DNA from: Abditibacteriota bacterium
Lineage (GTDB): Bacteria; Armatimonadota; UBA5829
Length of the DNA stretch: 64,000 nt
Assembly (NCBI GenBank): GCA_942493375.1
Contig: OW818698.1
Span: 6,082,139 to 6,146,138 of the forward strand
Direction: 5' to 3'
Shown in pieces: positions 1,629-33,043 of this stretch. The notes below the pieces were generated by a model. That model was not told where the DNA came from. It worked only from the letters and a program-made list of their open reading frames with translations, and made no database searches. The position numbers were made by a program, and so were the translations under genes. Position 1 is the stretch's first letter. Every line of letters begins with the position of its first letter.

Positions 1629-1696
1629 ATCTCTATATGACTCCGGCCCAGATTACTCTTGAAGCCATTTCTATCAAGGGTGGGATTTGATGATTC

Positions 1697-2200
1697 ATGA
1701 ATAACAGACGCGCAAAGGTAGCGGAAAAATATAAAGAGAAAATCATAGCGATCAGAAATGCTGCTCGCATAATAGGGGGAGTTGCAGCAGTTGCTCTGTT
1801 GTTTCTCAACTCACAATACTTGCACGCCATCATATTCCCCAAAAGTATGTCGGATTTTATCGCTATAATAATGTATGCAGCATGTTTGATAGGCCTGGGG
1901 CTTTTTGGATTTGTTGAGCCTGGACGAATAGAACCATTGAGTATACCCGAAGGCTACAGAATGTTCGTTTACCGTCTTATAATCTTTGAGATGATCGTAT
2001 CGTGTCTGTTTGTATCTATTGGCACTGCACTAGTTTTATCTTTGTTGTTTATGATGCGTTACTGGCTGCGTTATGCTAATTATGGGTTGGACCGTCTTGA
2101 TTGGTATATTTGTTTAGCTGGCGGGGTACTGTTAGTTTCATCATGGTTATTTACATTACTACCCGGTGTCTCTATGGATACAAAAAAATGGAAGAATTGA
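1697..2200 (+). CDS. Hypothetical multi-pass membrane protein
   Basis: 167-aa ORF with about four hydrophobic helices. No recognisable family. Confidence 0.4.
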   Translation: MNNRRAKVAEKYKEKIIAIRNAARIIGGVAAVALLFLNSQYLHAIIFPKSMSDFIAIIMYAACLIGLGLFGFVEPGRIEPLSIPEGYRMFVYRLIIFEMIVSCLFVSIGTALVLSLLFMMRYWLRYANYGLDRLDWYICLAGGVLLVSSWLFTLLPGVSMDTKKWKN

Positions 2201-2256
2201 TACTATGGTTATGGCTAACAAATTGTCTTGACACTGTCTAGACAATTATCCTGGTA

Positions 2257-2703
2257 TTGGTAGATATTATGGATATTGAGATGGATTTCACAGATAATAA
2301 AAGTAAAGCCAAGATCATTATAGTATCCATCATTGGCTGTATTGTAGTAATCATAATGGTCATCCTTGTGCGTTCGTATTACCCAAGCTTTTCCCCGAAC
2401 AGATTGCGACATGCCCGTTGGTATCTTTCAACTACACCCAGTATTCTCAAGTATTGCTTTGTGCCAAAAGGAACCATAGAGTCAGAAATCGTCAGTCGTT
2501 TTGGAACACCAGATACTATTACGACTATCGATAGTTCGTTTTGGCGCAAGTATATTGCGAGAGAGACACTATACCGGCCACCATCATACAGTTGCGATCA
2601 TGTATTGATGTACAGTGCGGCATCAGGTATCGATATGATAACGGCCCACTATTATATGGATGCTAACGACCGGCTTCTTGAAACGTTTATAATTGACAAG
2701 TAG
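2257..2703 (+). CDS. Hypothetical membrane-anchored protein
   Basis: 148-aa ORF. The N-terminal hydrophobic segment IIIVSIIGCIVVIIMVILV looks like a single TM anchor. Confidence 0.35.
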   Translation: MVDIMDIEMDFTDNKSKAKIIIVSIIGCIVVIIMVILVRSYYPSFSPNRLRHARWYLSTTPSILKYCFVPKGTIESEIVSRFGTPDTITTIDSSFWRKYIARETLYRPPSYSCDHVLMYSAASGIDMITAHYYMDANDRLLETFIIDK

Positions 2704-2803
2704 CAAGCAGCGACTAGATTCTTCTTCCTCCATGTTATAATACAAGTAATACATATGAGTCTTTGAACCATGGTAAATTGTGGTTGTTAAGGAGGTATCT
2801 GAG

Positions 2804-3202
2804 ATGTTGACGGAGTGTTCAGTATACCCAGAAATATATAGGCATCAAGTCGAAGAGCTGATCAATAGTCACCAGGAGCGCAATACGGATGATGTGCTAT
2901 TGGCTGCGGTTTGGTATGACAAATCCAACAAAAAAGGTGATATAAACCTACTTGAAATATATGCGAGCTTTCCATTTTCAGGACAGGGAGAGCTTGAAAC
3001 ATTCGAGTTTCCATCCACCGCAGATTTTCCTCTGGAGGGTAAATTGAAAATCACCATTACCTGTCCTGATGAATTGCGATCAGCATTGCTGAGAAAAGAT
3101 CGGACATTAGCAAAGATCAGAAACGCGAAAGACAGGCAATTATTCGTGTTTTCTCCTGAAGGTGAGGTCATATACAAAGAGGTTATAGACTCCAATGCCT
3201 GA
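2804..3202 (+). CDS. Hypothetical protein
   Basis: ORF 2780..3202. The internal ATG at 2804 is preceded by AAGGAGG at 8-nt spacing, so that is the preferred start. Confidence 0.4.
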   Translation: MLTECSVYPEIYRHQVEELINSHQERNTDDVLLAAVWYDKSNKKGDINLLEIYASFPFSGQGELETFEFPSTADFPLEGKLKITITCPDELRSALLRKDRTLAKIRNAKDRQLFVFSPEGEVIYKEVIDSNA

Positions 3203-3205
3203 CAG

Positions 3206-4273
3206 CTAACGATATTCCAACGCCGTATCAAACATCGCCACAATATTCTCCGGTGGTGTGCCTGCCTGGATTGCGTGGGAGGGGCCGAGGATGTAGCCTC
3301 CGTCTTTTCCAAGGACTCTTATCCGCTCCCGGACTTCTTCCTCCACATCGCTGACAGTGCCGAATGGGAGGGTGCTTTGGACGCTGACTCCGCCTTCGAA
3401 GCAGAGCTTATCTCCATAGTTTGTCTTTAGGGCAACAGGATCCATATCTTTGGCGTCGAACTGCAGGGCCTGCAATATGTCTATTCCCATGTCTATCAAA
3501 CCTGGTACTGCCTGCATTACAGCTCCATCTGAGTGGTATATCACTTTTACACCGAACTCGTGGATCAATTTGTTAAGCCTTACGTGATGGGGTTTTATCT
3601 GTTGTTCCCACATGTCCAGAGAGAGCATAAGCCCCTGCTGACCTCCGATGTCGTCTGCTGTGAACACCAGGTCAACCATTCCATCCGCAGCTTCCAGCAT
3701 TTTTCTGGTGTGATCGATAAAGAAGTCGGTGATCTTTGTCATAATGTGATCTGCAAGGCCAGGATTGAGGAGCATGTTTGTAAACATATTTTCCAGACCG
3801 CTCATATACCAGGCGGTCTCAAATATGTTGCCGCCGGAGATCATCAGACAGTATTCCTGGTCGGAGTTAGCGGCCTTTATGTCACTGGTAATGTTGGAAT
3901 AATCGAACCAGTCAGTTGTCGGCCAGTTGTAACCGTGGAGATCATCTATGGATTCAACATCTGCAAGTGGATAAAATTCTATCTCTTCATAACACCCGGC
4001 GCCGTAGCTGACAGGCCTTCTCATCACTCCCCATATATCATGATTCGGACTCAGTGTTGGACCGATATACTTTGCTTCAACTTGCCTGATATCTAATGTT
4101 GGATATAGATACTGTTCAACAGTAATTCGACGGTTCTTTTGCAGGTAATCGCTCAATTCATGATAGGCCGGAGGATTTATACCGGAGCAGACCATTGCAA
4201 TTGGAACCCTATCCGTCTCACGATGCTCCAGCGCAAGTCTGACACGTTCTTTATGGCTTAGTACGATGCTCAT
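3206..4273 (-). CDS. Uroporphyrinogen decarboxylase (URO-D) family protein, of the MtaA/CmuA-like methyltransferase or HemE-like decarboxylase type
   Basis: N-terminus ERVRLALEHRETDRVPI and C-terminal GGYILGPSHAIQAGTPPENIVAMFD are typical URO-D superfamily signatures. The length from Met149 (about 355 aa) fits the family. A GGAGG lies 5 nt upstream of the ATG at 4273. The longer 503-aa ORF extension has no family support. Confidence 0.6.
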   Translation of the reverse strand: MSIVLSHKERVRLALEHRETDRVPIAMVCSGINPPAYHELSDYLQKNRRITVEQYLYPTLDIRQVEAKYIGPTLSPNHDIWGVMRRPVSYGAGCYEEIEFYPLADVESIDDLHGYNWPTTDWFDYSNITSDIKAANSDQEYCLMISGGNIFETAWYMSGLENMFTNMLLNPGLADHIMTKITDFFIDHTRKMLEAADGMVDLVFTADDIGGQQGLMLSLDMWEQQIKPHHVRLNKLIHEFGVKVIYHSDGAVMQAVPGLIDMGIDILQALQFDAKDMDPVALKTNYGDKLCFEGGVSVQSTLPFGTVSDVEEEVRERIRVLGKDGGYILGPSHAIQAGTPPENIVAMFDTALEYR

Positions 4274-8882: not shown

Positions 8883-8958
8883 TAGCCCGCATTATACATG
8901 ATAGACTCACTTTCGCTCCTACTGCCGGTCGAAAGTAGAGACTGGTGTATAATGCGGG
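8883..8958. repeat. Nested-hairpin intergenic repeat, family 1, copy 2 (divergent copy with compensatory stem changes)
   Basis: AGCCCGCATTATACATGATAGACTC...CTTTCGCTCCTACTGCCGGTCGAAAG...GAGACTGGTGTATAATGCGGG. The loop CCTACTGCCGG is identical to the other copies. Stem substitutions are paired. Confidence 0.75.
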
Positions 8959-8992
8959 TTTGGTTGCAACAGCCAAACAATCGGAGGCTAGA

Positions 8993-11900
8993 GTGCGGAT
9001 ATATTTGATTGGTGTGATCTTAAGTCTATTATTTCCAGCTGCGGCATTTGCTGATGGTGCACTCATCGATAACAACCCGACCGGTGGGCACAGGGCGTAT
9101 TGGCCTGCTCCCGGGAGTTATGTTGGCGGCACCATGTGGACTATAGATGGTGACCCTATGGATATCTGGTCGCTACCGTTAGCTTCTACGAATCCAAAAG
9201 GACACTACAAGCTATATATTCTTGCGGGTGCACGCGATGGATCCCCATCTGCGTCGCAACTTGAGGTTGGACTCGGTAGTGTCGTTATTCCGGCAAGATG
9301 GAAGACTACCTGGACACCGGAGTGGGTTGGCCCTTTTGAGATTGTTACTGGCAAGTCTTTTAATGCGATCCAGTTCCGCTGCACTGGACCCACAGCTATC
9401 GATGCATTTTACCTCGCAAAAGCTTCCGATAATACACTTCCTCAGAATAGTTCAAAGATAAATCCACCAGCTATTATAGAGAAATGGAAGAGCGTCTGGA
9501 TCGATTTTGTGGACTCACATCTGCATCCTGCATGGTTTACTCCAAAAGACAGTGTGCAGGTGAGAGTCAGGTCCAACTCTACAGTTTCCGCTGAACAGGT
9601 ACTGGTTAAGTGTATCGTTTTGGATTATGACCATAAGCCTGTCGCTCAGCAGGAATGGCCAATCAAACTGCCTGGCAACCCACAAGAGACATTGCTCAAT
9701 ATTAGTGTGCCAGCAAAGTATGGTCCGTATCTGCTTCGCTTTACTATGGAATCCGGTGAGTATAAGCAGGAATATCAGTATGTTGTAGCTAGGGTGCAGG
9801 CGCCTTTGGCGTTTGTGGGTGATGAGCGATTGAACGGGCATTTCTACTCTACGCCTTTCTCTGAGTCCCTGGCTGCATATATTGGTGCAAGGTCAACACG
9901 GCTCTGGGATGTGGCAGGCAATGCTCTATGGCGCAATGTTGAACCGGAGAAAGGTGTCTGGAAATGGGATGATAATCTGGCGAGATTTCCATTGGGTAAA
10001 GTGAGTCTGCTGGGAGTGCTGGAAACCCAGCCTGCGTGGTCAACCAAAGACTCATTCAAGGACACGACAGAGTGGCTGGAATATGTTAAGCAGACTGTCT
10101 CACACTTCCGCGGCCGTATCGACAGCTGGGAGGTTTTCAATGAGAGGTTCTACCAGAAAGAGCCTGATAATGAATATGCAAGCCTGGTGCGCAAGACCAT
10201 TGCCGCGGCTCGATCAGCGAATCCATCGGTAAAGATCGGTGGTCCGTGTGGACCTCCAGAGGAAGTGCCTGGGGCATTGGATTTTTGGAGAGCAATAGGT
10301 GAACGTGGACTCCTTAAGGACTTTGACTTCATCACCGGTCACTTTTATGTCGGTGGCGGTGGCACATATCCTATTGATCAGGACGTTGCACTGGATGGCA
10401 TGCTGGGCAGAGTGCGGGAAATATGCGATAAATACGGCGCTAAAGATAAGCCATTATGGAACTCCGAGGCAGGAATCGGTCCGAATGAATCGTTCTTTGT
10501 TGGCAGGAACACTCCATATGGGATATTTGCAGGAACAGGTTTCAACCAGCGTGATCCTGTGACTTATCGGGTTGGAGCTGCGATGATGTCCCGTCTGGCT
10601 TTGACCCACCTGTGGCACAACTGTCGGTGGTACTACTACTATTGCGGGAGCGGATATGGTAGTGCATGGGCTATGTGTGACTTCCCTGATAACACTCCAT
10701 TGCCCCTTGCCGTTGCTTACGCGCAGACCAATCGGATGATGAAAAGCGCTAAAGCTGCAGGCAGAGTGAAGATTGATGGAGGGCTGTTTGGGTTTAAATT
10801 CGATGTAAAAGGAACCCACACGGCGGTCTTATGGTCATTAAAGTTGAAAGCCGGGGAAACACGCACTATCAACTGGCCAAACGCCCGGGTGATGCTCAGA
10901 GACATGTTCGGAAATCCTATTCCGAAGGCTGATGTCCACAATATCGGCATCTCTCCAGTATATATTTCAGGCAGCAAAGTACAGGTTGAAGCAGCACTTG
11001 CAGCGATCAAAGTTACGTCCAAGATCGACCAGCAGGCGGGACCATCGGAGATCGTTTTTGACCTTACAGATAGTAAACGATCCCCGTGCGCTGCGGTTTC
11101 TGCTGATAGTTCGGAAGCTGGAAGCACTCCTGAGAATGTGCGGGATGCTGAAGTTGGCGGGGTATGGACTTCAGCGTCAGCCAAAGGTGAGCATTGGGTT
11201 GAGTATAAGTGGCCGGAAGCCATTGAAGTTAATCGGGTGTTGTGTGAATGGCCGGCAGACAAACTGCCGGACGGATATATGATTGAGTGGTGGGATGGAC
11301 TGGCGTGGAAGCCATGCTCTCCGTTCTATGAAGGATTCCGTAAACCCGGTCTACCGCTGGAAAACTACTTGCTCTCACAGCCAGCGAAGACAGACAGGCT
11401 TCGGATGCTTGTTCGCAGCGATTCTGCTAAGCCTGCCAGCATTACAGAGTTTAGAGCATATTACATTCCTCTGCTGACTTCTCCAAAAATAGAGATGCAG
11501 GAGCTGTGGAACCGTAAGTTCGAAGTAGATAGTGATGGATATATACGCGATTGGCTGGTCTGCGGTCCATTCCCAAGCCCGGGAAATCGATATGAGACCG
11601 ATGGTACGCGTAAAGTAGTCAACTGGGATACGGACTTCCTGGTTGATGACTGGATATACGGTCCTAATCATCCTGAGGCTGCAATAAGGCCGTTTGTCGG
11701 AATGAAACACGCTGTGCGTTTCCCCGCAGTCCAAAGCGCTCCCTGGAAACCAATGGAAGTATATGTTGTCTGGCAACCAGTTCACGCATCTTCTGGCTTT
11801 GTTGACATATCAAAATCGCTCATGAATGATGTGATATCCATTGCTGGTAAGGAAGTAGAGCAGTGCTTTGGTTATATGTATTGCAATGTTGTTTGTGCTA

Positions 11901-12166
11901 ACGAGATTGATGCAAAGCTGTCTGTCGGCTCTGATGATGGATACAGGATATGGATTGATGGAGTTTTGACAGCTGAGAAGCAGGCTTTCCGAAGTGCGGT
12001 TCCCGATCAGGAGAGCTATCCGGTAAAACTCACTAGAGGCACTCACCAAATACTGGTTAAGCTGCATAATGACATCGGTGGGCATGGTCTCTATCTGCGG
12101 TTTATAGATGTTAAGTCTGCTAGACCATTCACAAGTTTGGACGTGTTTCTTAAGAATCTTCAATAG
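8993..12166 (+). CDS. Secreted clan GH-A glycoside hydrolase with C-terminal F5/8 type C (discoidin) and PA14 domains
   Basis: GTG start at 8993 with GGAGG at 5-nt spacing; the upstream ATG at 8945 lies inside a repeat hairpin. Signal peptide LLFPAAAFA. WEVFNE is the acid/base motif of GH5/GH39-like enzymes. EHWVEYKWPEAIEVNRVLCEWP...WWDGLAWKP is discoidin-like. YMYCNVVCANEIDAKLSVGSDDGYRIWIDG is PA14-like. Confidence 0.6.
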   Translation: MRIYLIGVILSLLFPAAAFADGALIDNNPTGGHRAYWPAPGSYVGGTMWTIDGDPMDIWSLPLASTNPKGHYKLYILAGARDGSPSASQLEVGLGSVVIPARWKTTWTPEWVGPFEIVTGKSFNAIQFRCTGPTAIDAFYLAKASDNTLPQNSSKINPPAIIEKWKSVWIDFVDSHLHPAWFTPKDSVQVRVRSNSTVSAEQVLVKCIVLDYDHKPVAQQEWPIKLPGNPQETLLNISVPAKYGPYLLRFTMESGEYKQEYQYVVARVQAPLAFVGDERLNGHFYSTPFSESLAAYIGARSTRLWDVAGNALWRNVEPEKGVWKWDDNLARFPLGKVSLLGVLETQPAWSTKDSFKDTTEWLEYVKQTVSHFRGRIDSWEVFNERFYQKEPDNEYASLVRKTIAAARSANPSVKIGGPCGPPEEVPGALDFWRAIGERGLLKDFDFITGHFYVGGGGTYPIDQDVALDGMLGRVREICDKYGAKDKPLWNSEAGIGPNESFFVGRNTPYGIFAGTGFNQRDPVTYRVGAAMMSRLALTHLWHNCRWYYYYCGSGYGSAWAMCDFPDNTPLPLAVAYAQTNRMMKSAKAAGRVKIDGGLFGFKFDVKGTHTAVLWSLKLKAGETRTINWPNARVMLRDMFGNPIPKADVHNIGISPVYISGSKVQVEAALAAIKVTSKIDQQAGPSEIVFDLTDSKRSPCAAVSADSSEAGSTPENVRDAEVGGVWTSASAKGEHWVEYKWPEAIEVNRVLCEWPADKLPDGYMIEWWDGLAWKPCSPFYEGFRKPGLPLENYLLSQPAKTDRLRMLVRSDSAKPASITEFRAYYIPLLTSPKIEMQELWNRKFEVDSDGYIRDWLVCGPFPSPGNRYETDGTRKVVNWDTDFLVDDWIYGPNHPEAAIRPFVGMKHAVRFPAVQSAPWKPMEVYVVWQPVHASSGFVDISKSLMNDVISIAGKEVEQCFGYMYCNVVCANEIDAKLSVGSDDGYRIWIDGVLTAEKQAFRSAVPDQESYPVKLTRGTHQILVKLHNDIGGHGLYLRFIDVKSARPFTSLDVFLKNLQ

Positions 12167-12568
12167 CCTGTTTTGTCATGTATAGAGAATGCTAGTAGTA
12201 TACTGTGTGACAAACGGGAAAAGTCAATGAATGCCATTATAGTAGATGACTTGTATTGCATAAAATGAAGTCAATTGTGTGAAGTGCAATGGTGCATGCT
12301 TAGGTAATATTGCACTGTAGATAGGTGTATATCTTTAGACTGGCCTCGAAAAACACCTTAAATACTTTCGCAAATCTTTAAAACTCCCCTAAGTATTATC
12401 GCGACAAAACCAATCATATGATATGTATCTGCAATTGATACATAGTGGAGCGCATCGTATCTCGTAAGGGCATCATATTACATATATGCTTGCTGTGCAA
12501 GAAACTGCTGTCACTATGCAGATGCTGGAATGTGTTTTGTGCGTGAACAACTTTACAGGAGAACAAAA

Positions 12569-15500
12569 ATGAGGATGAACTCGATCAAACTACTGCCGAG
12601 GGTGCTTGGTGCATTTGTAATAGTGGCCGCTATTGCTGCTGCAATCGGCATTCAGGGTCTTTCCGGAATGGGTTTTGCTAATAAGTCATATGAAGCAGTA
12701 ACCCACATTCACATCCCCAGCAGCTCTGCAATACAGGCAATAAGAGCACAAGTCTTGTTTGCTCGGCTTGCAGAGAGAAGTCTCATAATACCTTCTCTGA
12801 ACGATAAAGTTAAAAATACAAATGTGAAGCGTTTCTCCTCAGCATTTAAGTTGCTGGAGGAAGCCCGCAAGAAATATGAATCGATTCCTCAGCAGAAAAA
12901 TGAATCAGCTGCTTGGAAGAAGTTTGGTCCAGCTTACGATGATTGGAAAGAAAAGATAGACACAGTTGTGGGTATGGCCAAAGCTGGGAAGTTTGTTGAG
13001 GCACAGGCATATTCTTATGGTGCGGCCAGGGATAGTTATAATGCTCTGAATGATGTGATTGACGAGATGGAAGCCATAAATACGAAAAGTGTCAGTCAGA
13101 ATCATCATGCGTTTGATGCTGCATATATTAGAGTCAAGAACATCATGACCGGCATTATCGTAATTGGTGTTCTTATTGCCGTTGCTTTCGGTATTGTTAT
13201 TGCTTTTGGTGTCTCGAAACCCATCATGGCAATTAGAAACGTTGCTAACCAGATTGCTTTAGGTGAAGTGGATGTAGAACTGAAACACGGCGGCAAAGAC
13301 GAAGTCGCCGATCTCACTCTGGCGATGCAACAGATGGTTGATGGTATAAAGGTCACTGTTGATGCAGCTGAACAGATATCCAAGGGTGACATGTCAGCGC
13401 ATGTAGAACCACGCTCTGACAAAGACATACTCTCCTACGCTATAAACAATGTCGTTGAATCAGTAAATGGACTTGTATCTGAAGCCACCATGCTTAGCAC
13501 AGCGGCTGTTCAAGGACGTTTGGACACCAGGGGAGATGCGGCTCATTTCGAAGGTGGGTTCCGGGATATAGTGGTCGGAGTTAACGAGACACTCGACGCT
13601 GTGATTGGACCTCTCAATGTTGCTGCTGAATATGTTGAACGGATCTCCAATGGCGATATACCTGCCAGGATTACTGACAACTATAATGGTGATTTCAATG
13701 AGATCAAAAACAACCTGAATAAGTGTATAGACGCGGTAAATATAATGACCGCTGATGCACAGATGCTGAGCATTGCAGCGGTAGCGGGATTACTCGATAC
13801 AAGAGCTGATGCTACTAAACATCAGGGAGATTTCAGGAAGATTGTTACCGGAGTCAACGATACTCTGGATGCAGTCATTCAACCTTTGAATGTTGCCGCA
13901 GAATATGTTGAACGGATCTCCAATGGAGACATACCGGTCAAGATAACAGATAATTACAATGGTGATTTCAATGCGATCAAGAACAACCTGAACAAGTGTA
14001 TTGACTCTGTAAACGCGTTAATAGCTGATGCGGTATTGCTCAGTGAAGCTGCTGTTGAAGGCAAACTCGATATTCGAGCGGATGTTACAAAGCACCAGGG
14101 AGATTTCCGCAAAATCGTTCAAGGTGTAAATGAAACACTAGACTCAGTCATAGGGCCTTTGAATGTGGCTGCTGAGTATGTGGAGCGAATCTCCAATGGG
14201 GACATCCCTGTAAAGATCACTGACAATTACAATGGCGATTTCAACGAAATCAAGATCAATTTGAACCGGTGCATAGATTCGGTCAATGCTCTTGTTGCAG
14301 ACGCAAATATGCTGAGCGGAGCAGCAGTTGAAGGTAAACTCGACACCAGAGCCGATGCAAGCAAGCATGGTGGTGATTTCCGCAAGATAGTAGAGGGTGT
14401 TAATGATACTCTGGATGCAGTCATCCAACCACTCAATGTTGCTGCTGAGTATGTAGAGCGGATTTCCAATGGAGATATTCCTCTCAAGATCACAGATAGC
14501 TACAATGGTGATTTCAATGAGATCAAAAACAACCTTAACAAGTGTATAGATGCAGTGAATGCTATGGTGAGTGATGCCGATATGCTCAGTGTTGCGGCTG
14601 TAGAAGGGCGACTAGACACAAGGGCCGATGTAGCCAGGCACGGTGGCGATTTCCGCAAGATAATCGAGGGAGTCAATAATACTCTGGACTCCGTTATAGG
14701 ACCGTTGAATGTTGCTGCCGAATATGTAGAGCGGATCTCGAATGGTGATGTCCCGGCTAAGATTATCGATAGCTACAATGGTGACTTTAACGCGATCAAA
14801 AATAACCTCAACAGATGTATAGATTCTGTAAATGCGTTAATAGTGGATGCATCTGAATTAAGTGATGCTGCTGTGCATGGAAGACTGGATACTCGAGCCG
14901 ATGCAAAAAGGCACCAGGGAGATTTCAAGAAGATCGTGGATGGTGTGAACCAGACACTGGATTCGATTGTTGGTAATCTGGAAGCTATACCATCACCGAT
15001 CCAGTTCATGGATATGAACCACAATATCCAGTACATAAACAAAGCAGGAGCACAGTGGCTTGGAAAGAGCAAAGAGGAACTCACTCATTGCAAATGTGCG
15101 GATGTTTGGAAGTCGTCTAATTGCGGGACGAAGGATTGCACATGCACAAATGCCGTGCAGATTGACGACAGTTACGAACACGCAAATGATACCCAGATTG
15201 GCGATAAGCACCTGGATATCCACTGTGTGGCAGCTCCTCTCAAGGACCAGAATGGGAAAATAGTAGGTGCATTCGAGTTCATTATTGACCAGTCTGAGGT
15301 CGTTAATACTGCTCGAGTGATTAAGAAAGTCGGTCAGTATCAGGATGCTGAAGTTGAGAAACTCAGATCTGCCCTGGCACAGTTTGCACAGCGCAACCTT
15401 ACAGTCAGTGTAGACACTGAATCTGCTGATGCTGATACATTGGACACCAAAGAAAAATTCGACATGATCGCAGATGCTTTCAACGATTGTGTTTCATCCA

Positions 15501-16672
15501 TGAGTAGTGTTATAGGGCATGTCGCGGAGGCTGCCACCAAAGTGGCTGATTCGACCTCAATGCTCTCAAAGACTGCCACCAGTGTAGGAGATGCATCTCA
15601 GCAGATCGCTGAGACGGTTGACCAGGTTGCTAAAGGATCTCAAGAACAGTCAAAGACTGTTATGAACAGTGCAGAAGCTATGGAGCAGCTGATGAGAGCC
15701 ATCGACGAAGTAGCGGCAGGAGCTCAAAACCAGGCTAAGCAGGTAGATGAGACTGTTGGACTTATTCAACAGATAACTGCTGCTATCGATGAAGTTGCAA
15801 AGAATAGTAACAATGTAGCCCATGCGAGTCGTCAGGTAAGTGAAGTAGCAGTTCAGGGTGGATTACAGGTTTCTAAGTCAGGTGAAGGCATGCTCAGGAT
15901 CAAGGATGCAACCGATAAGGTAGGCAGCATGGTCCAGCAACTTGGTGACAGTAGTAAACAGATAGGTGCTATCGTTGAAACTATCGATGATATAGCTGAA
16001 CAGACCAACCTGCTGGCCCTGAATGCTGCAATCGAGGCAGCAAGGGCAGGGGAACACGGCAAGGGGTTTGCAGTAGTTGCCGATGAAGTGCGTAAACTGG
16101 CTGAAAGATCCAGCAAGGCAACCGGTGAGATTGCTGATCTTATAGGTTCGATGCAGCAGATGATAACGGCTGCGGTATCGGGAATGCAGGACTCCGGTAA
16201 GTTGGTTGCTGAGGGAACTCAACTCTCTGTGGATGCTGGAGATGCGTTGAAGAGCATTCAGGGTGCAGTCGAGGGGATCGTTTCACAGATAGACAATATG
16301 GCTTCTGCAGCTCAGCAGATGTCTGCATCGAGTACAGAAGTTGTGAGAGCGATAGAGAATGTATCTGCAGTTACAGAAGAAACAACCGCTGCTGCAGAAG
16401 AAATGGCTGCATCCAGCGCTGAGGTATCCAGGCAGATAGAACAGGTAGCAGCTGTGAGTGAGGAGAATGCTGCCGCTGCGCAGGAAGTAAGCGCTACAAC
16501 CCAGGAGCAGACTGCTGCTGCTGAAGAGATGAGCGCGGGAACTGAGGATCTTTCAGGGATGGCTGTGGAGTTGAAGGAGCTTGTTTCTGAGTTCAAACTG
16601 GATGCAGATAGTGATACTCTAAAGAGTGTCACAAAAAAGGGTACCATACGGAATTCGCGCAAGGCTGCATAG
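12569..16672 (+). CDS. Methyl-accepting chemotaxis protein with a poly-HAMP repeat array and a Cys-rich PAS domain
   Basis: AGGAGA RBS before the ATG at 12569. TM1 is followed by a 4-helix-bundle sensor, then TM2, then a HAMP domain. Five to six tandem about 93-aa units follow, each with a HAMP-like core ([35 protein letters not shown]). Next is a PAS-like domain with HCKC...NCGTKDCTC...HC. The canonical MCP signalling motif [33 protein letters not shown] is present. Confidence 0.85.
13440..15000 (+). repeat. Intragenic tandem DNA repeat, about 279-bp period and about 5.5 copies, encoding the poly-HAMP array
   Basis: GCTGAATATGTTGAACGGATCTCCAATGG recurs at 13625, 13904, 14173, 14452 and 14722. 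Neighbouring units are roughly 80-85% identical at the nucleotide level. Confidence 0.8.
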
Positions 16673-16762: not shown

Positions 16763-19585
16763 TCATTTCTTATTCGGAAATACCATACTACCCCAGCGCA
16801 GTGGATTATTCCAATTGTCCGCACCACCATTCCAAACCCTTCCGCCAGCATCTAGATCGAAACCCCATTTGTCTCCAGCATTCGGACGTTTACCAAAATA
16901 GTCCCAGGGGATTAAAGCTTCTATTGTCCAGAAGTTGACGCCTTGAAAGGAAGCCACTTTAGCTCTGGGAATGATATCACCAGAAGCAAGACCGGTTTTT
17001 GCAGCTGCGCTAATATGTGCAGCCTGCGCTGGTCCGTTGTTCTTTGTTAATGGAGCCAGTCCGAACTGGAAATGGTTATCAGACATGAACGGGTATTTAT
17101 TGCTGTCCACAGTTGATACATATACTCGCGCACAGGAACCAGCCCAAATCCACCATCCGGTATTATCGTTTTTTGCCGGGATCATATCGTCAACCTTTGC
17201 AGCTACCAGGAGCCCTTCCGGGGAATACCCGACACCGAAACGGCTGACACTTTCGGCTGTTTTAGCGTTTTTTCGTCCAATCCCGGCAAATGCCATAGCT
17301 CCCGCGCTCATACCACCTTGCCTGCCTATCGTAACCGGCAGCTTTCCCCAGTCAGATAGGTTTCCATCGATATTTATCTGTCCGGAAGGAAAAGGGATAA
17401 CGCTTACCCTCCTTATTTGCCTGGGTCTCAAGGTGGTTGGTAATGGGCTGAGTGAAGGCATTAATCTGCAACTTATGTATATAAAAACCGGATCTTCATC
17501 CGCCAATACTTGCCATTGCTTGCCGATCTTTCGCAAACGTTTTTGATTGAGCTCTCCACCCCACAAGTCTTCATTAGATACAGGTCGTCCAGGCAGATTT
17601 ATCCACTTTTGTTTGCCTCCGGTTTTAACGGTGTCGGTCCAGACTGTCAACAATGTGCAATCTGGTTTCCAGATGGTCTTCCACGCCCATACATGACTAT
17701 ATTTAGGCATGCCAGATATTATGCCCAGGAATCTTGACCGTTCGAGATGTCTCGATGTGACTGCTATTGCATTCAAACTGAGCTTGGGTTTGCCAGAGTA
17801 ATCGATTAACCCGAAGTTATGTTCCGGGTCTGCTCTATTGGATCCCCAGTCGGTCATAATGTGGAGTGAGACTCGTTTTACACCGGCAGCCAGGCTGATA
17901 ATGTATGTGCGTGAGAAGAAGCATGCCTGCTGAAACTGGGTGACCTTCATATAGCCGGGTGTATCAACTGTTTGAGTCGGCCATCCGATCTCCGAGAATA
18001 TTATTGACTGTCCGTTACCGTAGTCTTTGATAACCTTGTGTAACCTGAGTATATCCTCCAGTAGTCCGTCCTCAGGACCCTGGTCTGTATGTCGATAAGG
18101 ATGGATGTCCACTATGGCGAACTTCGGACTAAGCCCGGCATCGAAGAGTCTCTTAATATAACCTACATCGGCATCTCCCGTTGTCCCGAGGACCATTTTC
18201 GCTTTAGGGTTGATTGAATGGACTGAGTCTGCAGCGGTGCTACATAGTTCGACAAACTGGGCTAGTGTGCCTTTCCATGATCCATAGGGCTCGTTATTTG
18301 GCTCATTCCATATCTCAAATTCGGGATCATATATACCAAGAGTTCGCTTTGTTAGCTCTTTGCAATAGGTTGAGTAATCGGTTAGGCAGTCCGGTTTAGG
18401 AGGGCCGTGTATACCGAGAGCCGGATCCAGCTGGGCCCAACCGGGAGTCCAGGAGAGTGAATGGCGGACGATCAGGCCGTAAGCCAGTGCATCCGATGAA
18501 ACTTTGGCCGGATCTTCTCCCCAGTTATAAATACCCCGGCCTTCGTTGCACACAGTGACCCATGTCGGGCTCCCAGCACGGTCTGAGTGAACACCGATCT
18601 TCTTTGCAAGAACAGGGAAAGCTCGCACTCCGACAATGCTGAATGGCGATGCCTTCATCTGCTCAATGGTAAGTGGATGTGCAGGTTTGACAATCGTAAA
18701 GAGGTTCTTTGCGACTACTTTTCCTCCACCGGGAATCGACAATTGGAGTTCGTAGCTGCCAGGTGTAAGATCAGGCAAGTCAGCGGTGAAGGTTCGCCCG
18801 AATGGCTTTACCAAACAATTTCCTGCTGGCATGTTTCTGCCCCGATCAAATACTGAAAGGGTAGGGGATTTACCCGGTAGACACTCATTAAGTAGGTCGA
18901 TTATGGCCTTTGGGGGAGAAAAATCATAATATACGTTTGCCTGCTCAGATGGGATTAGGCTGACTTCGGTGGTTTCAGTTGCATCTATTGCTGAGAAATC
19001 GGCAGTTGTATACTCCAGTATTCCACCTTCGTTTTTACCGCTGAAATCCACATTTCCGATGAATCCATCCATGTTAAAACGAATGGTGATTTCAGTGGTC
19101 TTTCTCGGAAGCGTGATCCAGTCCAATTGACTGACCGGAATGTCTCCGCTTATACGGTAACCGGGGAAGTCTTTGCTGATGCGGAATATTTCTCTGAAAT
19201 CCGGGGAAGTGTTTGTAGAGCAATCGATGTAGAAGTCACCCTCGCCAAGGTCTATACCTGCGCAGTATGGAGTGGACATCCGGAACCGGGAAACAGGTTT
19301 GGAGAATTTATATGCCATGCTCCAGAAACAATGACCGCCGGCGGATTTACTAATACTTAAGGCTGGACTGTCTTCTGAATCAGTCATCTGCTGACCTGGA
19401 TGGAATGTAACACCCCAGGCGTTGTTCCAATACCAGACTCTGTTGGCGCCGGTTCCTATTGTTTCTTTGAAGGTGGTGCCATAGCGGTCGGTGGGTAGAA
19501 TGTTGGGACTTCCCTGCCTCCACTGGGCTGCATTTACAGATAGCGAAAGCAGCAAAACCAATATCGCAGCGTAAATAGTCTTCAT
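16763..19585 (-). CDS. Secreted clan GH-A glycoside hydrolase with a C-terminal CBM9/DOMON-like module
   Basis: Signal peptide MKTIYAAILVLLLSLSVNA. FEIWNEPNNEP is the acid/base motif and IFSEIGWP is the nucleophile motif of GH5/GH39-like enzymes. The C-terminal INIDGNLSDWGKL...WTIEALIPW is CBM9-like. Confidence 0.6.
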   Translation of the reverse strand: MKTIYAAILVLLLSLSVNAAQWRQGSPNILPTDRYGTTFKETIGTGANRVWYWNNAWGVTFHPGQQMTDSEDSPALSISKSAGGHCFWSMAYKFSKPVSRFRMSTPYCAGIDLGEGDFYIDCSTNTSPDFREIFRISKDFPGYRISGDIPVSQLDWITLPRKTTEITIRFNMDGFIGNVDFSGKNEGGILEYTTADFSAIDATETTEVSLIPSEQANVYYDFSPPKAIIDLLNECLPGKSPTLSVFDRGRNMPAGNCLVKPFGRTFTADLPDLTPGSYELQLSIPGGGKVVAKNLFTIVKPAHPLTIEQMKASPFSIVGVRAFPVLAKKIGVHSDRAGSPTWVTVCNEGRGIYNWGEDPAKVSSDALAYGLIVRHSLSWTPGWAQLDPALGIHGPPKPDCLTDYSTYCKELTKRTLGIYDPEFEIWNEPNNEPYGSWKGTLAQFVELCSTAADSVHSINPKAKMVLGTTGDADVGYIKRLFDAGLSPKFAIVDIHPYRHTDQGPEDGLLEDILRLHKVIKDYGNGQSIIFSEIGWPTQTVDTPGYMKVTQFQQACFFSRTYIISLAAGVKRVSLHIMTDWGSNRADPEHNFGLIDYSGKPKLSLNAIAVTSRHLERSRFLGIISGMPKYSHVWAWKTIWKPDCTLLTVWTDTVKTGGKQKWINLPGRPVSNEDLWGGELNQKRLRKIGKQWQVLADEDPVFIYISCRLMPSLSPLPTTLRPRQIRRVSVIPFPSGQINIDGNLSDWGKLPVTIGRQGGMSAGAMAFAGIGRKNAKTAESVSRFGVGYSPEGLLVAAKVDDMIPAKNDNTGWWIWAGSCARVYVSTVDSNKYPFMSDNHFQFGLAPLTKNNGPAQAAHISAAAKTGLASGDIIPRAKVASFQGVNFWTIEALIPWDYFGKRPNAGDKWGFDLDAGGRVWNGGADNWNNPLRWGSMVFPNKK

Positions 19586-23720: not shown

Positions 23721-25916
23721 TCAGACTACTGCCCGGTTTATGATCTCGTCTTGTATACTTTTTTCCAGAATGTTGAAGTATGCGCTGTAACCGGCTACCC
23801 TTACTACCAGGTTCGGATAGGCTTCGGGGTTGCTTTGGGCTTTGAGTAGAACGTCTTTATCTATCGCAGAAAGTTGAAGTATTGATCCATTATCCTGGAC
23901 AAATTTGTAAATCAATGCCGATACCACATCGTTAGTCAGTTTGTCTCCGGCTGGCAGGTTGATGTCCAATACTCCACCTCCTGCATACTTCTCCATGGGT
24001 ATTGTTGAAGCTGCATTTAACACAGATGTCAGGACTCCTGCATTCTTTTCAGCTGGTGACATACCCCTTGTGAAATACTGCCCGGACTTTCTGCCGTCCG
24101 GGGTTGCCTGGAACATACTCCCCCAGACTTTGAAGATAGTGTAAGTAAAGAGAGTTGCTTCGAACTTGCCCCCACGACCATTCGGTTGGCCGTTAGCAGC
24201 GTCTGCAACATCTGAACCTACCATTGCAGTAAACTCGTTGAGTTCAGGAGTATCTTCACCATACTTTGGAACGCGCCTAAGGACGTAGTCTTGAATATAC
24301 TCATATCCCACATAATCAGCATCCAACGCGGCTCTGAGTTCGTCCATCGTGCAGACCTTGTCGTCAAAGACCAGTTTTTTAACTCCCATCAGAGAATCTA
24401 ACAGAGATCCCAGGCCATTCAGGGATATTCCTGACGTGTTGTACCTGGCACCACCACCCAGTATGTCCACCGCCTTGCTCAAACAGTCGTCAACGCTGCA
24501 GGAGAGCATAGGGGAGGGGTTCATTATGACGGCCTTGGCTTCATATACTGCCCCCATCGCCGATATCGAGTCCAGCATTGCAGAAAGGTTCGTTTTGAAT
24601 GCCTGGTAGAACTCATCGAATGTCTTAGCTTTGGGGCCAGCATCAGTTAGTTTGAAATAATCAAGGTCCAGTGCTGTTGCCTTCTCAGGATGCAGGGTAA
24701 GCTGCAACGGCTTCAAGAGGTTTACATAGATGGTTGCTCTGAAATTGGACTCGGTGTTTTGCAATACGGGTTCCTGGCAGCCGCCGTTTACACCCAGTCT
24801 GCTGTCTTCAAGGCTCTTTCCGATCCTGACATTTGCGGCGATATTGGTTTCGTCTGCAAAAACAGCCAGAATATTGGTCTCAGATACCGTCAAGTCCGCA
24901 AGCAGATCTACATACTCTTTAGGACTGTCTACACAAACGTGAGCGTTGAGTTTCGGGTTGGAAAGGTGCAGGTCTTTGATCGCTCTGCAGATCATCTCTG
25001 TTATGTCGTTATAAACAGGCTTGCCTTCCCGGTCCATACCACCAATGTTCACAGTTGTTGAGGTTTCCGGTCCATTGGAAAGATCAAACCTTGCATCGGT
25101 TATAGCCATGAAAGACTGGATCAGATAGTATGCTTCATCGGGCGTTATACGTCCGGCTGCTAAGTCCGATTCATAATATGGCGCCAGCATGCGGTCGAGT
25201 TGTCCGTATATGCTGACTCCTATGCCTTCGAGTCCGCTGCAGGCTTCTCTGTAGAAAAGTATCGTGTTTAGGGCTTCATAGAAGCTGGTCGGAGCTTGAG
25301 CCGGGCATTTACGGGCTGTTTTGGAAATTTTGGTTAACCGATTAACTACATCCGGGTCAGTCTCGGTTTTAAGCATTGCATCAGCTAAATCGGCGTGTCG
25401 GTTGGCAAATGCAATCAGGCATTCCATTGAGACAATCGCAGCTTCCAGGAATTCTTTCTTGTCGGTTGTTTCGACAGTCTGAAGTCTCGTCAGTGCCTTT
25501 TGCCTGAGACCTTCAAGGCCATATTGCAATATATTGTCATAACCTGCGCACTGGTGGTCCCAGTCAATAAACTGCCAACTGACAAATGCTGCTTCTTCTC
25601 TGAATGCATCAATAATTGGCTGGACCAGAGCAGTATGCTCCCAGTTGCGTTCCCGCATCAGCGCTCCGACACCAGTCATTCCCCACATATTTCGCGGTCT
25701 GGAGTCTTCAATCACATAATAGAACGGACTCGTTTTGAACAGATGCACTTTGCAAGTTTCAAGCTCTGCAAGGTAGAGCATTTTTTTCTGAACGAAAGGA
25801 GACTGGTCATCGTTTAGTAATTGAAGCCACACATCTTTCGTGGCTGAAGTATCTGTGCTGGTATTGGAGTAGTATTGCTCATATTCCTGGAAGAACGCCT
25901 GCTTATCGAAATGCAT
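23721..25916 (-). CDS. Glycyl radical enzyme (PFL2 / glycerol dehydratase / CutC / HypD class)
   Basis: C-terminal glycyl-radical motif VVRVAGYSAYFNILEKSIQDEII. Active-site loop GVNGGCQEPVL. 731 aa. Confidence 0.75.
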   Translation of the reverse strand: MHFDKQAFFQEYEQYYSNTSTDTSATKDVWLQLLNDDQSPFVQKKMLYLAELETCKVHLFKTSPFYYVIEDSRPRNMWGMTGVGALMRERNWEHTALVQPIIDAFREEAAFVSWQFIDWDHQCAGYDNILQYGLEGLRQKALTRLQTVETTDKKEFLEAAIVSMECLIAFANRHADLADAMLKTETDPDVVNRLTKISKTARKCPAQAPTSFYEALNTILFYREACSGLEGIGVSIYGQLDRMLAPYYESDLAAGRITPDEAYYLIQSFMAITDARFDLSNGPETSTTVNIGGMDREGKPVYNDITEMICRAIKDLHLSNPKLNAHVCVDSPKEYVDLLADLTVSETNILAVFADETNIAANVRIGKSLEDSRLGVNGGCQEPVLQNTESNFRATIYVNLLKPLQLTLHPEKATALDLDYFKLTDAGPKAKTFDEFYQAFKTNLSAMLDSISAMGAVYEAKAVIMNPSPMLSCSVDDCLSKAVDILGGGARYNTSGISLNGLGSLLDSLMGVKKLVFDDKVCTMDELRAALDADYVGYEYIQDYVLRRVPKYGEDTPELNEFTAMVGSDVADAANGQPNGRGGKFEATLFTYTIFKVWGSMFQATPDGRKSGQYFTRGMSPAEKNAGVLTSVLNAASTIPMEKYAGGGVLDINLPAGDKLTNDVVSALIYKFVQDNGSILQLSAIDKDVLLKAQSNPEAYPNLVVRVAGYSAYFNILEKSIQDEIINRAVV

Positions 25917-27036: not shown

Positions 27037-28641
27037 TTATTTCTCCCAGTCCGGTCTTAACCTGTTCTGAGTTTCCCACAGGTCAAGTATCACAAGAGCG
27101 GACATTGATTCTATTACAGGGATGACCCTTGGGATAATGCAGGGATCGTGTCTCCCGAGCACACTGAGGTCGATATCATCACCGCTGTAAGTTGATGCCA
27201 GCTGGTTTGTTGAAACCGATGCAGTGGGCTTTATAGCAACCCTTATCAGGATCTCCTGGCCAGTGCTGATACCCCCCAGGATTCCTCCGGCATTATTGGA
27301 CTTAAATCCATCGGAACGTATAGGGTCGTTGTGCTGGCTGCCTCTCATCTTTACGCAGCTGAATCCTGAGCCTATTTCGAACCCTTTGACTGCACCCAGG
27401 CTGAGAATAGCTCTACCGATAAGTGCATCGAGTTTGTTGAAAACAGGATCGCCGAGTCCAGCAGGAACTCCATTTATCCGCAGTTCGATAATACCACCGA
27501 CTGAATCCCCGTCGTCTCGTGCAGATTCGATTGCCTTTATCATTTTTGGTGCTGCATTCGCATCAGCACATCTGACTGGATTGCGCTCGATTTCGTTGAT
27601 ATCAAAGCTTTCTGCACGAATACCACCCAGTTCCAATGCGTGAGCTGTAAATGTGACTCCTCTTGCAGCCATTATCTTCCTCGCCACTGTTCCACCAGCG
27701 ACTCTACCGGCAGTCTCTCTACCGGATGATCTTCCACCGCCGCGGTGATCGCGAATGGCAAACTTGCGCCAGAATGTGAAGTCAGCATGGCCTGGACGGA
27801 ATATCTCCCGCAGGTAGTCATATCTTCCTGAGTCCTGGTTGGTGTTTTCAATTACAAAGCATATAGGAGCGCCGGTGGTCCTACCTTCGAAGACTCCTGA
27901 TAGGATTTTCACTCTGTCAGGTTCATTCCTGGGAGTTGTTACGCTGCTCTGTCCAGGTCTTCTGCGGTCGAGTTCGGCTTGAATATCTTCTTCGGAGAGT
28001 TCGAGGCCTGGTGGAACACCATCCAGAACTGAACCTATCGCAGGTCCGTGGCTCTCTCCAAATGTGCTGACCCGGATTGCTTCTCCAATGGTGTTTGGTT
28101 CAGTTGTCCGCGTGGCCATCTCTTCAGATATACCATCGCTAACCTTCTCAGCAACTTCCACAGGAGTCAGTCCGGTAGTATCCACACATACATCCGTATA
28201 TGGATAAATAATCTCAATAGTCCGATCGAGTCTTTCGGTGAAGACTTCAAAACCGTTGTCTCCAGCATAGAATGGGGGAAGTCCACGACCTTTCATTCTC
28301 TCCCAGAGTATATCTTTATCTGCAGTGAGAAGCACGATGATGGATTTCTTGCGCAGGATTCTTCTGGATTCCGGGTTTACCAGCGCAGCACCACCGGTGC
28401 ATATAATCCGCCAGTCCAGGTCCTTGCAGGCCTCAACAGCTCTATGTTCCAGCTTTCTAAACGCAGGTTCACCTTCAGCCAGGCATATTTCCCTGCAGGT
28501 AGCCCGGGAACCAGTGTCTTCGGCGTAAATATCTTCAATCAGATCGTCAGTCTCAACAACACTCAGACCGAGTCTTCGGCTGACTTCCTGAGCAATTGTG
28601 CTTTTTCCGGAACCTTTGGGACCTGCAATTACTACCCGCAT
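27037..28641 (-). CDS. aroKC: Bifunctional shikimate kinase / chorismate synthase (AroK-AroC fusion)
   Basis: N-terminal P-loop VIAGPKGSGKSTIAQEVSRRLGL...ETDDLIE and the CTGGAA...LWERM lid are shikimate kinase. The C-terminal FGESHGPAIGSVLDGVPPGL...RRRPGQS...KILSGVFEGRTTG...FRPGHADFT...RGGGRSSGRET matches AroC nearly residue for residue. Confidence 0.85.
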   Translation of the reverse strand: MRVVIAGPKGSGKSTIAQEVSRRLGLSVVETDDLIEDIYAEDTGSRATCREICLAEGEPAFRKLEHRAVEACKDLDWRIICTGGAALVNPESRRILRKKSIIVLLTADKDILWERMKGRGLPPFYAGDNGFEVFTERLDRTIEIIYPYTDVCVDTTGLTPVEVAEKVSDGISEEMATRTTEPNTIGEAIRVSTFGESHGPAIGSVLDGVPPGLELSEEDIQAELDRRRPGQSSVTTPRNEPDRVKILSGVFEGRTTGAPICFVIENTNQDSGRYDYLREIFRPGHADFTFWRKFAIRDHRGGGRSSGRETAGRVAGGTVARKIMAARGVTFTAHALELGGIRAESFDINEIERNPVRCADANAAPKMIKAIESARDDGDSVGGIIELRINGVPAGLGDPVFNKLDALIGRAILSLGAVKGFEIGSGFSCVKMRGSQHNDPIRSDGFKSNNAGGILGGISTGQEILIRVAIKPTASVSTNQLASTYSGDDIDLSVLGRHDPCIIPRVIPVIESMSALVILDLWETQNRLRPDWEK

Positions 28642-30836: not shown

Positions 30837-31619
30837 TCATAATCCCGCCGGGATTTCGTAATTCATTAATTTCACATGCCCATCAGCAAACCCACAGTTA
30901 TATCCACCGTTGTGTCTTTCGACTGCTTCTTCGATCGGAGCGGATGAGTTCCAACCTGTATTGGTGTCGAACAACATCGGAGTGCTGAAAGGTTCTGTAA
31001 TATTTGTCATGCTTACACCTTCCAGCTTTCCATAGAGTGAATAACCTCCTGATGCTTTGAACGCTGGACAAGTAAAAACCTTTTTGTCTTTCTCATAGGA
31101 TGCGAAGACATCAGACCAACTTCCGGCCAGGGGGAACTTATCATCATAGTCCTGCGCATACATCATGGCAGCATTACTGAGCTTATGTAGATTTGTAGCA
31201 CAGGTGGACTGACGGGCTTTCTCCCGGGCTTTGGCAAATACCGGAAAGAGAATTGCTGCAAGTATAGGGCTTAAAACTAACCCGGCAGTTCCTATTGCAC
31301 CCAACACAATTCCAGCTACAGCCAGCCCATGACCTTTTTGTCTACCCCAGCTGGACTTTATCTGGTTCAAAGCAACTATGCCCAGAATCAAGCCGACGAT
31401 TCCCATAAGTCCCAAAAACGGTATAATCCCCACCAAACCCAACACAAGAGAAGCTATTGCCATACCATTTTTAGATTTCTCCACAGAATCCGGAATCGAA
31501 TATGCCGGCTGAGGTCTGTAAGTGTCCTGAAACGGTGGACTTGGCGGAGCACTACCTGTACAGCTCTCGCACACCGTGGTTCCTTCGGGTAATTCCTTAC
31601 CACATTTACCACAAAACAT
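30837..31619 (-). CDS. Zn-ribbon / DUF4190 membrane anchor / pseudopilin-like H-X9-DG (DUF1559) protein, paralog 1
   Basis: MFCGKCGKELPEGTTVCESC zinc ribbon. A Pro-rich linker. DUF4190-like two-helix segment MAIASLVLGLVGIIPFLGLMGIVGLILGIVALNQIKSSWGRQKGHGLAVAGIVLGAIG. Pilin-like helix ILFPVFAKAREKARQSTCATNLHKLS. The H-X9-DG motif sits in RHNGGYNCGFADGHV. Confidence 0.75.
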   Translation of the reverse strand: MFCGKCGKELPEGTTVCESCTGSAPPSPPFQDTYRPQPAYSIPDSVEKSKNGMAIASLVLGLVGIIPFLGLMGIVGLILGIVALNQIKSSWGRQKGHGLAVAGIVLGAIGTAGLVLSPILAAILFPVFAKAREKARQSTCATNLHKLSNAAMMYAQDYDDKFPLAGSWSDVFASYEKDKKVFTCPAFKASGGYSLYGKLEGVSMTNITEPFSTPMLFDTNTGWNSSAPIEEAVERHNGGYNCGFADGHVKLMNYEIPAGL

Positions 31620-31633
31620 TATAATGCCTCCAA

Positions 31634-31966: not shown

Positions 31967-31994
31967 ACTAATGCTTCCATTTCGTGTATGAATA

Positions 31995-32825: not shown

Positions 32826-32867
32826 AATAATACCTCCGTGATATATGAATATTGACTGCGAACTTTC

Positions 32868-33029: not shown

Positions 33030-33043
33030 GGTAAGAGACTGGT

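Follow-up and report, generated by a model that had tools for sequence, protein, structure and literature searches.

A transmembrane chemoreceptor with a stable di-HAMP array and a PAS domain carrying a conserved cysteine triad

Gene and domain order of the receptor

We analysed a 64-kb stretch of DNA from an Abditibacteriota bacterium (64,000 nt, positions 6,082,139 to 6,146,138 of the forward strand of contig OW818698.1, GenBank assembly GCA_942493375.1; hereafter the window) for a chemoreceptor gene located at 12569..16672 on the plus strand. This coding sequence, one long open reading frame (ORF) that ends at 16672, specifies 1367 aa plus a stop codon and matches the Pfam families 4HB_MCP_1, HAMP, HAMP_2 (six times), PAS_4 and MCPsignal. 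Judging from its sequence, the product is a transmembrane methyl-accepting chemotaxis protein (MCP) with two sensory inputs in series, including a periplasmic ligand-binding domain. All the features of the gene described below lie on the plus strand.

An initial annotation of this DNA had delimited the gene in the same way, and these boundaries hold. We retained the ATG at 12569 as the start of a 1367-aa product because a Shine-Dalgarno sequence (AGGAGA, 12557..12562, read from the sequence) lies 6 nt upstream and because conservation with a syntenic orthologue begins there: the similarity starts at MRMNSIKLL, i.e. at the N-terminus predicted from this codon. ORFs found on the opposite strand within the gene are short. 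Promoter and terminator scans yielded counts no better than those obtained with shuffled sequence, Rfam gave zero matches in the window, and exact-product look-ups of the MCP, made with both candidate starts, returned zero matches.

The protein is predicted to be a transmembrane receptor with a periplasmic domain because two hydrophobic stretches, TM1 (aa ~10–32, 12596..12664) and TM2 (aa ~191–214, 13139..13210), bracket a four-helix-bundle (4HB) ligand-binding domain (aa ~33–190, 12665..13138), which is recognized by the Pfam models 4HB_MCP_1 (E = 1.2e-14, aa 11–184) and TarH (E = 6.2e-12). TM2 is followed by a membrane-proximal canonical HAMP (aa 215–260, 13211..13348), the best stretch for the Pfam HAMP model (PF00672, E = 5.5e-23), then by the HAMP array and the PAS domain. 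At the C-terminal end, the kinase-control (methyl-accepting, MA) hairpin (15566..16669) is identified by MCPsignal (PF00015, 160 bits against a cut-off of 34.6, E = 5.8e-47); it has the conserved tip motif, near aa 1162, and a motif scan with the pattern [ASTG]xx[EQ][EQ]xx[ASTG] located several candidate methylation sites in it. Between the PAS domain and the hairpin, a segment with a longer connector (aa ~936–981, 15374..15511) may be HAMP-like: it weakly matched the canonical HAMP units in hhalign (52% probability, E = 1.5e-4), and Pfam gave no HAMP match there.

Composition and age of the HAMP array

The array is encoded by a head-to-tail repeat internal to the gene. The initial annotation had recognized this repeat, and the motifs it quoted, NGDFNEI included, are indeed found in it. 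Tandem Repeats Finder returned a period of 273 bp (5.0 copies, 73% matches, score 1083), and the four successive start-to-start spacings given by the repeat finder are each exactly 273; the unit is thus 273 bp or 91 aa long, instead of 279 bp or 93 aa as first proposed. Five well-conserved units follow one another in tandem (aa 349–803, 13613..14977), with pairwise identities of 71–84% at the protein level and 66–74% at the DNA level. The 80–85% previously assigned to the DNA is therefore too high, a level of about 80% fitting the protein and not the DNA, and the description of the units as near-identical DNA repeats does not apply either, since the longest exact match between any two of them is 11–32 bp. 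When broken down by codon position, identity among the units is 84% at position 1, 86% at position 2 and 45% at position 3. The five units are preceded by a degenerate one, in 91-aa register with the array (aa 258–348, 13340..13612), which is 34–40% identical to the others at the amino acid level and 42–46% at the nucleotide level. HAMP_2 matches its C-terminal helix, and the Pfam HAMP model only weakly its first half, aa ~262–303 being weakly supported.

Each 91-aa unit is made up of a canonical HAMP followed by a non-canonical HAMP, i.e. a di-HAMP module, reportedly described by Dunin-Horkawicz and Lupas in 2010; it hence contains two HAMPs, and not the single HAMP-like core that had been proposed. 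HAMP_2 (PF18947), whose model spans the last helix of a non-canonical HAMP and an entire canonical HAMP, matches both halves of the unit and was found in six stretches of the protein (E = 2.8e-172). Moreover, aa 450–704 of the receptor (residues 193–447 of a 546-residue array query) aligned, in one uninterrupted stretch of 255 residues, with the crystallized poly-HAMP array of AskA, a histidine kinase of Myxococcus xanthus that provides the only solved structure of such an array (PDB 9trk and 9trj; E = 1.5e-14 with 9trk). Along with the MCPsignal match, these results bear out the earlier identification of the protein as a poly-HAMP chemoreceptor. As read from these matches, 12–13 HAMPs lie ahead of the PAS domain: the membrane-proximal HAMP and six di-HAMP modules, one diverged and five conserved.

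Note that the 91-aa period corresponds to exactly 13 heptads. Note also that the array contains one cysteine per canonical HAMP, located in the second helix within the sequence NLNKCID: C386 (13724-13726), C477 (13997-13999), C568 (14270-14272), C659 (14543-14545) and C750 (14816-14818). This position is a cysteine in 74% of 115 di-HAMP units taken from 59 proteins. It is core-like by heptad pattern, and one might speculate that the pairs formed in a dimer cross-link on oxidation.

Chemoreceptor poly-HAMP arrays have been reported to comprise dozens of HAMPs organized in nearly identical di-HAMP modules, and rotation of the helices has been proposed to travel down the rod by way of the alternating HAMP types (Coles et al. 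2026, PMC13446029). The array studied here resembles them in having modules of ~91–92 aa, alternating types and a conserved junction glycine, and in being located upstream of a methyl-accepting domain. By contrast, the published receptors are described as soluble, with an array that leads straight into the MA domain, whereas this protein has two transmembrane segments, a 4HB domain in the periplasm and a PAS domain that separates the array from the MA domain. The modules resemble one another (71–84% aa and 66–74% nt identity) but fall short of near-identity, and the array is shorter than dozens of HAMPs. By module structure, then, the array is of the published chemoreceptor kind, while the protein, as far as its predicted architecture goes, is outside the class as described. 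The suggestion that the array is longer and more regular than those previously reported is likewise not supported: dozens of HAMPs in nearly identical modules have already been published, and the relatives recovered here have up to 12 modules. As for AskA, its array is of the kinase type, with GAF, kinase and receiver domains downstream, and arose independently of the chemoreceptor type (PMC13446029).

The syntenic orthologue lies on a 259-kb metagenome contig (L054), where its two large neighbours are the same as those of the gene studied here. It is also 1367 aa long, aligns with the receptor with zero gaps (85.5% protein and 77.4% DNA identity) and contains the same five-plus-one units. Units occupying the same position in the two genes are 78–84% identical at the nucleotide level, against 66–79% for units occupying different positions, so that same-position units are the closest pairs. 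When the protein is considered region by region, amino acid identity is highest in the array (89.5%), followed by the MA domain (87.5%), the PAS domain (85.7%) and the 4HB domain (77.4%). Because the orthologue has the same length and the same number of units, with no gaps, the array is, on this comparison, old and stable: it arose before the two orthologue lineages split, purifying selection has kept it constant since then, and it is neither recently amplified nor unstable. The initial annotation had presented the repeat as a hotspot for length variation and as possibly collapsed in the assembly. The former proposal conflicts with the strong divergence of the units at synonymous sites and with the constancy of the 5+1 arrangement in the orthologue. 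Collapse is unlikely because the units have diverged enough for reads to map uniquely and because two independent assemblies agree, with zero indels.

Over longer distances, module number does vary, ranging from 0 to 12 among relatives, which fits the slow gain and loss of modules put forward in the literature (PMC13446029). In addition, a 67%-identical relative (P0006, positions 1-3315 of locus L053) has a second PAS domain where the array described here has HAMP modules, which suggests that modules have been exchanged, not only gained or lost. This extra domain, which sits inside the HAMP array, is a cysteine-triad PAS domain of a different subtype (CSNWGAGICKTENCGI). Although such gain, loss and replacement over evolutionary time could be taken to support it, the idea that the repeats are near-identical DNA that readily slips or recombines, making copy number variable between strains or collapsed here, is very improbable given the low identity of the units (at third positions above all), the shortness of their exact matches and the absence of indels from an orthologue only 77% identical at the nucleotide level. 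Taken alone, the domain architecture and the stability of the array are close to certain.

The cysteine-rich PAS domain and its family

The cytoplasmic PAS domain (aa 804–915, 14978..15313) was identified downstream of the repeats, where it had been predicted, by Pfam PAS_4 (aa 804–911, E = 1.7e-7) and, as described below, by structure prediction and Foldseek. It holds the three motifs that had drawn attention to it, HCKC (aa 840–843), NCGTKDCTC (aa 851–859) and HC (aa 885–886), but contains six cysteines rather than four: C841, C843, C852, C857, C859 and C886. The first five form the motif C841-K-C843-ADVWKSSN-C852-GTKD-C857-T-C859 (15089..15145), and C886 is encoded at 15224..15226.

We searched for homologues of the domain by an exhaustive HMMER scan with aa 796–935 as the query, and counted cluster representatives: 2245 were obtained at E <= 1e-3, of which 934 at E <= 1e-10. 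Many proteins of the family carry two to six copies of the domain. Residue conservation, counted over 268 aligned domain copies, singles out three cysteines: C843 (Cys in 99% of the copies), C852 (100%) and C857 (99%), which occur jointly in 264/268 copies. The position of C859 is a cysteine in 60% of the copies, and position 845, two residues after the first cysteine of the triad, is mostly D (52%), E (18%) or N (15%), here D845. Position 851 is mostly His (43%) or Asp (33%). By contrast, position 841 is K, Q or T in the family and not Cys, C841 being unique to this gene, and position 886 is Tyr in 75% of the copies and Cys in 13%. The copies that have a cysteine at position 886, this protein included, make up a subfamily of 36 copies in which the C859 position is a cysteine in 86% of the cases and position 871 in 47% (here it is a His). 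In the L054 orthologue, C841 is replaced by Phe, while C843, C852, C857, C859, H871 and C886 are kept. In view of this conservation, and of the replacement of C841 by Phe in the orthologue, the functional core of the motif appears to be the triad C843, C852, C857 plus C859, and not the HCKC pair. The earlier proposal that the cysteine-rich PAS domain is a candidate metal or redox site is made credible by the joint occurrence of the triad.

An AlphaFold2 model of the domain, built with a 50-sequence alignment, is confident, with a predicted local distance difference test (pLDDT) score of 95.9, and displays the standard order of PAS strands and helices. In this model, C843 lies at the start of E-alpha, C852 in the E–F loop, C857 and C859 at the start of F-alpha and C886 in strand H-beta, all of them elements that line the pocket where PAS domains usually bind a cofactor. 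In an alignment with the family profile, to be taken as a lead only, C843 falls on the photoactive, cofactor-facing cysteine of the LOV domain of YtvA. Profile searches of the PDB and Foldseek searches recovered only ordinary PAS domains, for example those of NifL, LOV proteins, WalK, DosP and Aer2, the top Foldseek matches being the NifL and LOV PAS domains.

Aer2 (Pseudomonas aeruginosa and Vibrio) deserves comparison since its PAS domain is also located between HAMPs, upstream of an MCP hairpin. Its PAS domain is the top profile match in the PDB (3vol), and the corresponding NCBIfam model partially matches the receptor over the region from the PAS to the MA domain. However, Aer2 is a soluble oxygen receptor whose PAS domain binds heme b and has three HAMPs upstream, whereas this receptor is predicted to be membrane-bound, with a periplasmic domain and 13 HAMPs upstream, and the heme-binding segment of Aer2 is left unaligned, the cysteine motif standing in its place. 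The likeness to Aer2 pointed out in the initial annotation consequently does not amount to membership: the protein scored 317.7 bits with the NCBIfam model NF041847, whose cut-off is 1200, it has two transmembrane segments and a 4HB domain, and it does not share the cofactor segment.

Among its best matches, the domain is found almost exclusively in chemoreceptors. MCPs account for 122 of the 150 best PAS homologues, and the same di-HAMP unit is present in 108 of them; at the loci from named genomes, the domain-bearing ORFs that are not cut short are nearly all MCPs. As far as can be told from these matches, the combination of a di-HAMP rod, a cysteine-triad PAS domain and an MCP hairpin is common in public data, and this gene is one member of a large family. 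A profile scan of the GTDB representative genomes with the subfamily alignment as the query gave 51 loci, none of them more than 54% identical, whereas the same scan with the single protein as the query gave no relative. In named genomes, the subfamily is present mostly in anaerobes (Methanomassiliicoccus, Methanospirillum, Methanosarcina, Bacillota/Clostridia, purple sulfur bacteria and Sulfuricella); it is also present in metagenome-assembled genomes from peat and digesters. Note that the full HMMER scan was needed to see the family: word-index searches returned one fragment with the PAS query and 19 short fragments with the family alignment. A tblastn search of plasmids with a family member gave only generic PAS matches (~30% identity, in aerobic rhizobia), which are uninformative.

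A putative metal or Fe-S centre and its alternatives

Two PAS domains that bind an iron-sulfur (Fe-S) cluster were compared with this one. The PAS domain of OrpR from Desulfovibrio vulgaris Hildenborough is a [4Fe-4S] redox sensor with a conserved D/E54 and thiols modelled 5–8 Å apart (PMC8359166). As in the present domain, there are three cysteines and an acidic residue at C+2, with C52, D/E54 and C61 spaced as C843, D845 and C852, and the host is an anaerobe; the third cysteine, by contrast, is placed differently (C-x8-C-x3-C in OrpR, compared by its published residue numbers, versus C843-x8-C852-x4-C857 here), and the output of OrpR is a sigma-54 activator instead of an MCP. The PAS domain of NreB holds a [4Fe-4S] cluster in S. 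carnosus and a [2Fe-2S] cluster in B. licheniformis, bound by the motif CX2CX11C(X2C), and responds to oxygen or sulfide (PMC13478379). It uses three or four cysteines, as this one may, but is coupled to a kinase. The domain is not of the NreB type: the CX2CX11C(X2C) spacing is absent among C841, C843, C852, C857, C859 and C886, and the PDB searches gave no sequence match to NreB.

The window itself provides information on the host. It encodes a PFL-like glycyl-radical enzyme (23721-25916, minus strand) and a BcrAD/BadFG-type ATPase (44004-45017, plus strand), both of which are typical of anaerobic metabolism, as well as many enzymes of glycan degradation, and its gene content suggests an anaerobic glycan degrader. 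Because the family is found mainly in anaerobes, because a glycyl-radical enzyme is encoded in the window and because the motif resembles that of OrpR, we favour a redox-labile centre in the PAS domain.

We therefore propose the following working scheme. The alternating canonical and non-canonical HAMPs would form a continuous four-helix rod, as can be surmised from published work on HAMPs, Aer2 and AskA. This rod would relay helix rotation from the membrane, or set its bias, and would keep both the PAS domain and the signalling tip well away from the membrane, at a distance that we roughly estimate at tens of nanometres. By analogy with the literature on Tar/Tsr, Aer2 and AskA, the 4HB domain in the periplasm and the PAS domain in the cytoplasm would act as two inputs in series on one coiled-coil backbone. 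Within the PAS domain, the usual cofactor pocket would house an Fe-S cluster or a different metal bound by thiolates; the ligands would be C843, C852 and C857, probably joined by C859, with D845 and C886 as further candidates. The PAS conformation would be altered when this centre is oxidized, converted or lost, and the C-terminal helix of the domain, together with the HAMP-like segment, would transmit the change to the CheA-controlling hairpin. The resulting behaviour may be redox or oxygen avoidance taxis of an anaerobe, with which the signal of a periplasmic ligand would be combined. We give this whole chain, that is, a two-input receptor with a predicted metal or Fe-S centre in its PAS domain, a probability of about 0.5. 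That the centre is specifically an Fe-S cluster is a prediction to which we would give slightly less than even odds.

Several observations weigh against this scheme. No solved structure with a cysteine-bound centre was found among the PDB matches, whether by sequence or by fold. The fourth cysteine is absent from ~40% of the family, so the ligand set is not uniform. The likeness to OrpR is drawn from published residue numbers, and the two motifs are one residue apart in their last spacing (x4 here, x3 in OrpR). The post-PAS HAMP, through which the signal would pass, is weakly supported. There are no che genes within the 64-kb window. Finally, a zinc site or a thiol switch would fit the residues equally well if nothing but the sequence were considered.

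The first alternative, namely zinc or a different structural metal, bound by the triad together with C859, H871 or D845, that stabilizes the E–F loop or serves in metal sensing, with no redox chemistry, is unlikely but has several points in its favour. Three or four cysteines with a His or an Asp inside 17 residues are typical of zinc sites, residues 36–62 of the domain weakly match a Pfam metallothionein model, and H871 stands where 47% of the subfamily copies have a cysteine, such exchanges being typical of metal ligands. In addition, WalK, one of the best profile matches (4mn5), is a known zinc-binding cytoplasmic PAS domain; its ligands, however, are His, Asp and Glu residues at other positions, and its alignment with the domain is gapped and shows no cysteines at the motif. 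A fourth ligand that varies across the family would be unusual for a purely structural zinc site, and both the concentration of the family in anaerobes and the resemblance of the motif to the Fe-S PAS domain of OrpR favour a redox-labile centre instead.

It is quite improbable that the domain binds an organic ligand or a heme, with for instance a thiolate as the axial ligand, and that the cysteines line or cap the pocket. The domain does have an ordinary PAS fold with a cofactor pocket, its best neighbours bind flavin adenine dinucleotide or flavin mononucleotide (NifL, LOV) or heme (DosP), and C843 is tentatively placed where LOV domains have their reactive cysteine. But the flavin motif of LOV domains, NCRFLQ, is not kept past the cysteine, and Aer2 aligns with the profile only on either side of the motif (positions 3–42 and 78–125), its heme-binding segment being replaced. 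A PAS domain of the c-type heme kind was also rejected, as none of the 12 cysteines of the protein is part of a CXXCH motif.

Even less probable is a metal-free thiol/disulfide or persulfide switch in which oxidants would close a disulfide among C843, C852 and C857 or C859 and so alter the PAS conformation: the conserved cysteines are close together in a flexible loop between two helices, and oxidant avoidance would be useful to an apparent anaerobe, but such switches usually involve two cysteines, whereas three near-invariant cysteines, a common fourth one and an acidic residue at C+2 are seen here, a pattern that looks like a coordination sphere, and the nearest characterized motif, that of OrpR, binds a cluster.

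Other genes of the window, and the locus of one relative, are worth recording. The products of three very large ORFs, at 8945-12166 (+), 16763-19585 (-) and 58495-61950 (-), which are 1073, 940 and 1151 aa long, matched no Pfam family at E <= 1e-4 or 1e-5; the MCP gene lies between the first two, both of which are syntenic in L054. Glycan-degrading neighbours include GH123, CBM96, DUF6259 and GHL6 proteins. At 30837-34630 (-) lie four tandem paralogues, all with DUF4190 and three also with DUF1559, a gene type associated with the Planctomycetes–Verrucomicrobia–Chlamydiae (PVC) group that may be a clue to the source of the DNA. RNase H (RVT_3) and N6_N4 DNA methylase domains occur together in a single ORF at 54219-55685 (+), and shikimate kinase and chorismate synthase are apparently fused in a 534-aa ORF at 27037-28641 (-). 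Elsewhere, on an ENA contig (L001, 2316-5469), a fragmentary relative is broken up, probably by frameshift errors, into numerous short predicted genes (PAS, HAMP_2, PAS_4, HAMP_2, Cys-PAS, MCPsignal) that lie within a full che operon (CheR, CheW, CheY, CheB, CheA, CheC, CheD).

Significance of the array and of the PAS family

Poly-HAMP arrays and PAS chemoreceptors are already known, and the repeat itself adds little to them. What the comparison with the orthologue does indicate is that the array is an old and strongly constrained structure, to be regarded neither as a contingency locus nor as a risk to the assembly.

The PAS family is the more useful lead, with three near-invariant cysteines, more than 2,200 representatives and no solved structure. 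In the literature searched, we found no description of the cysteine-triad PAS family; searches on the motif spacing and on Fe-S chemoreceptors brought up only OrpR and NreB as relevant, and a 2026 review of aerotaxis makes no mention of Fe-S or cysteine. We tentatively suggest, below even odds, that PAS domains with the triad (C-x-[DE]-x6-C-x4-C, often followed by x-C) make up a large class of Fe-S redox or oxygen taxis receptors of anaerobic bacteria and archaea, usually carried on poly-HAMP rods. If the centre is indeed an Fe-S cluster, the family would add a third kind of cofactor to those used for energy or oxygen taxis and would be the counterpart in anaerobes of the FAD-based Aer and the heme-based Aer2. 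The receptor described here would then be a tractable member of the class that also has a periplasmic input, and would offer a natural system in which PAS and transmembrane signals merge along a long HAMP rod.

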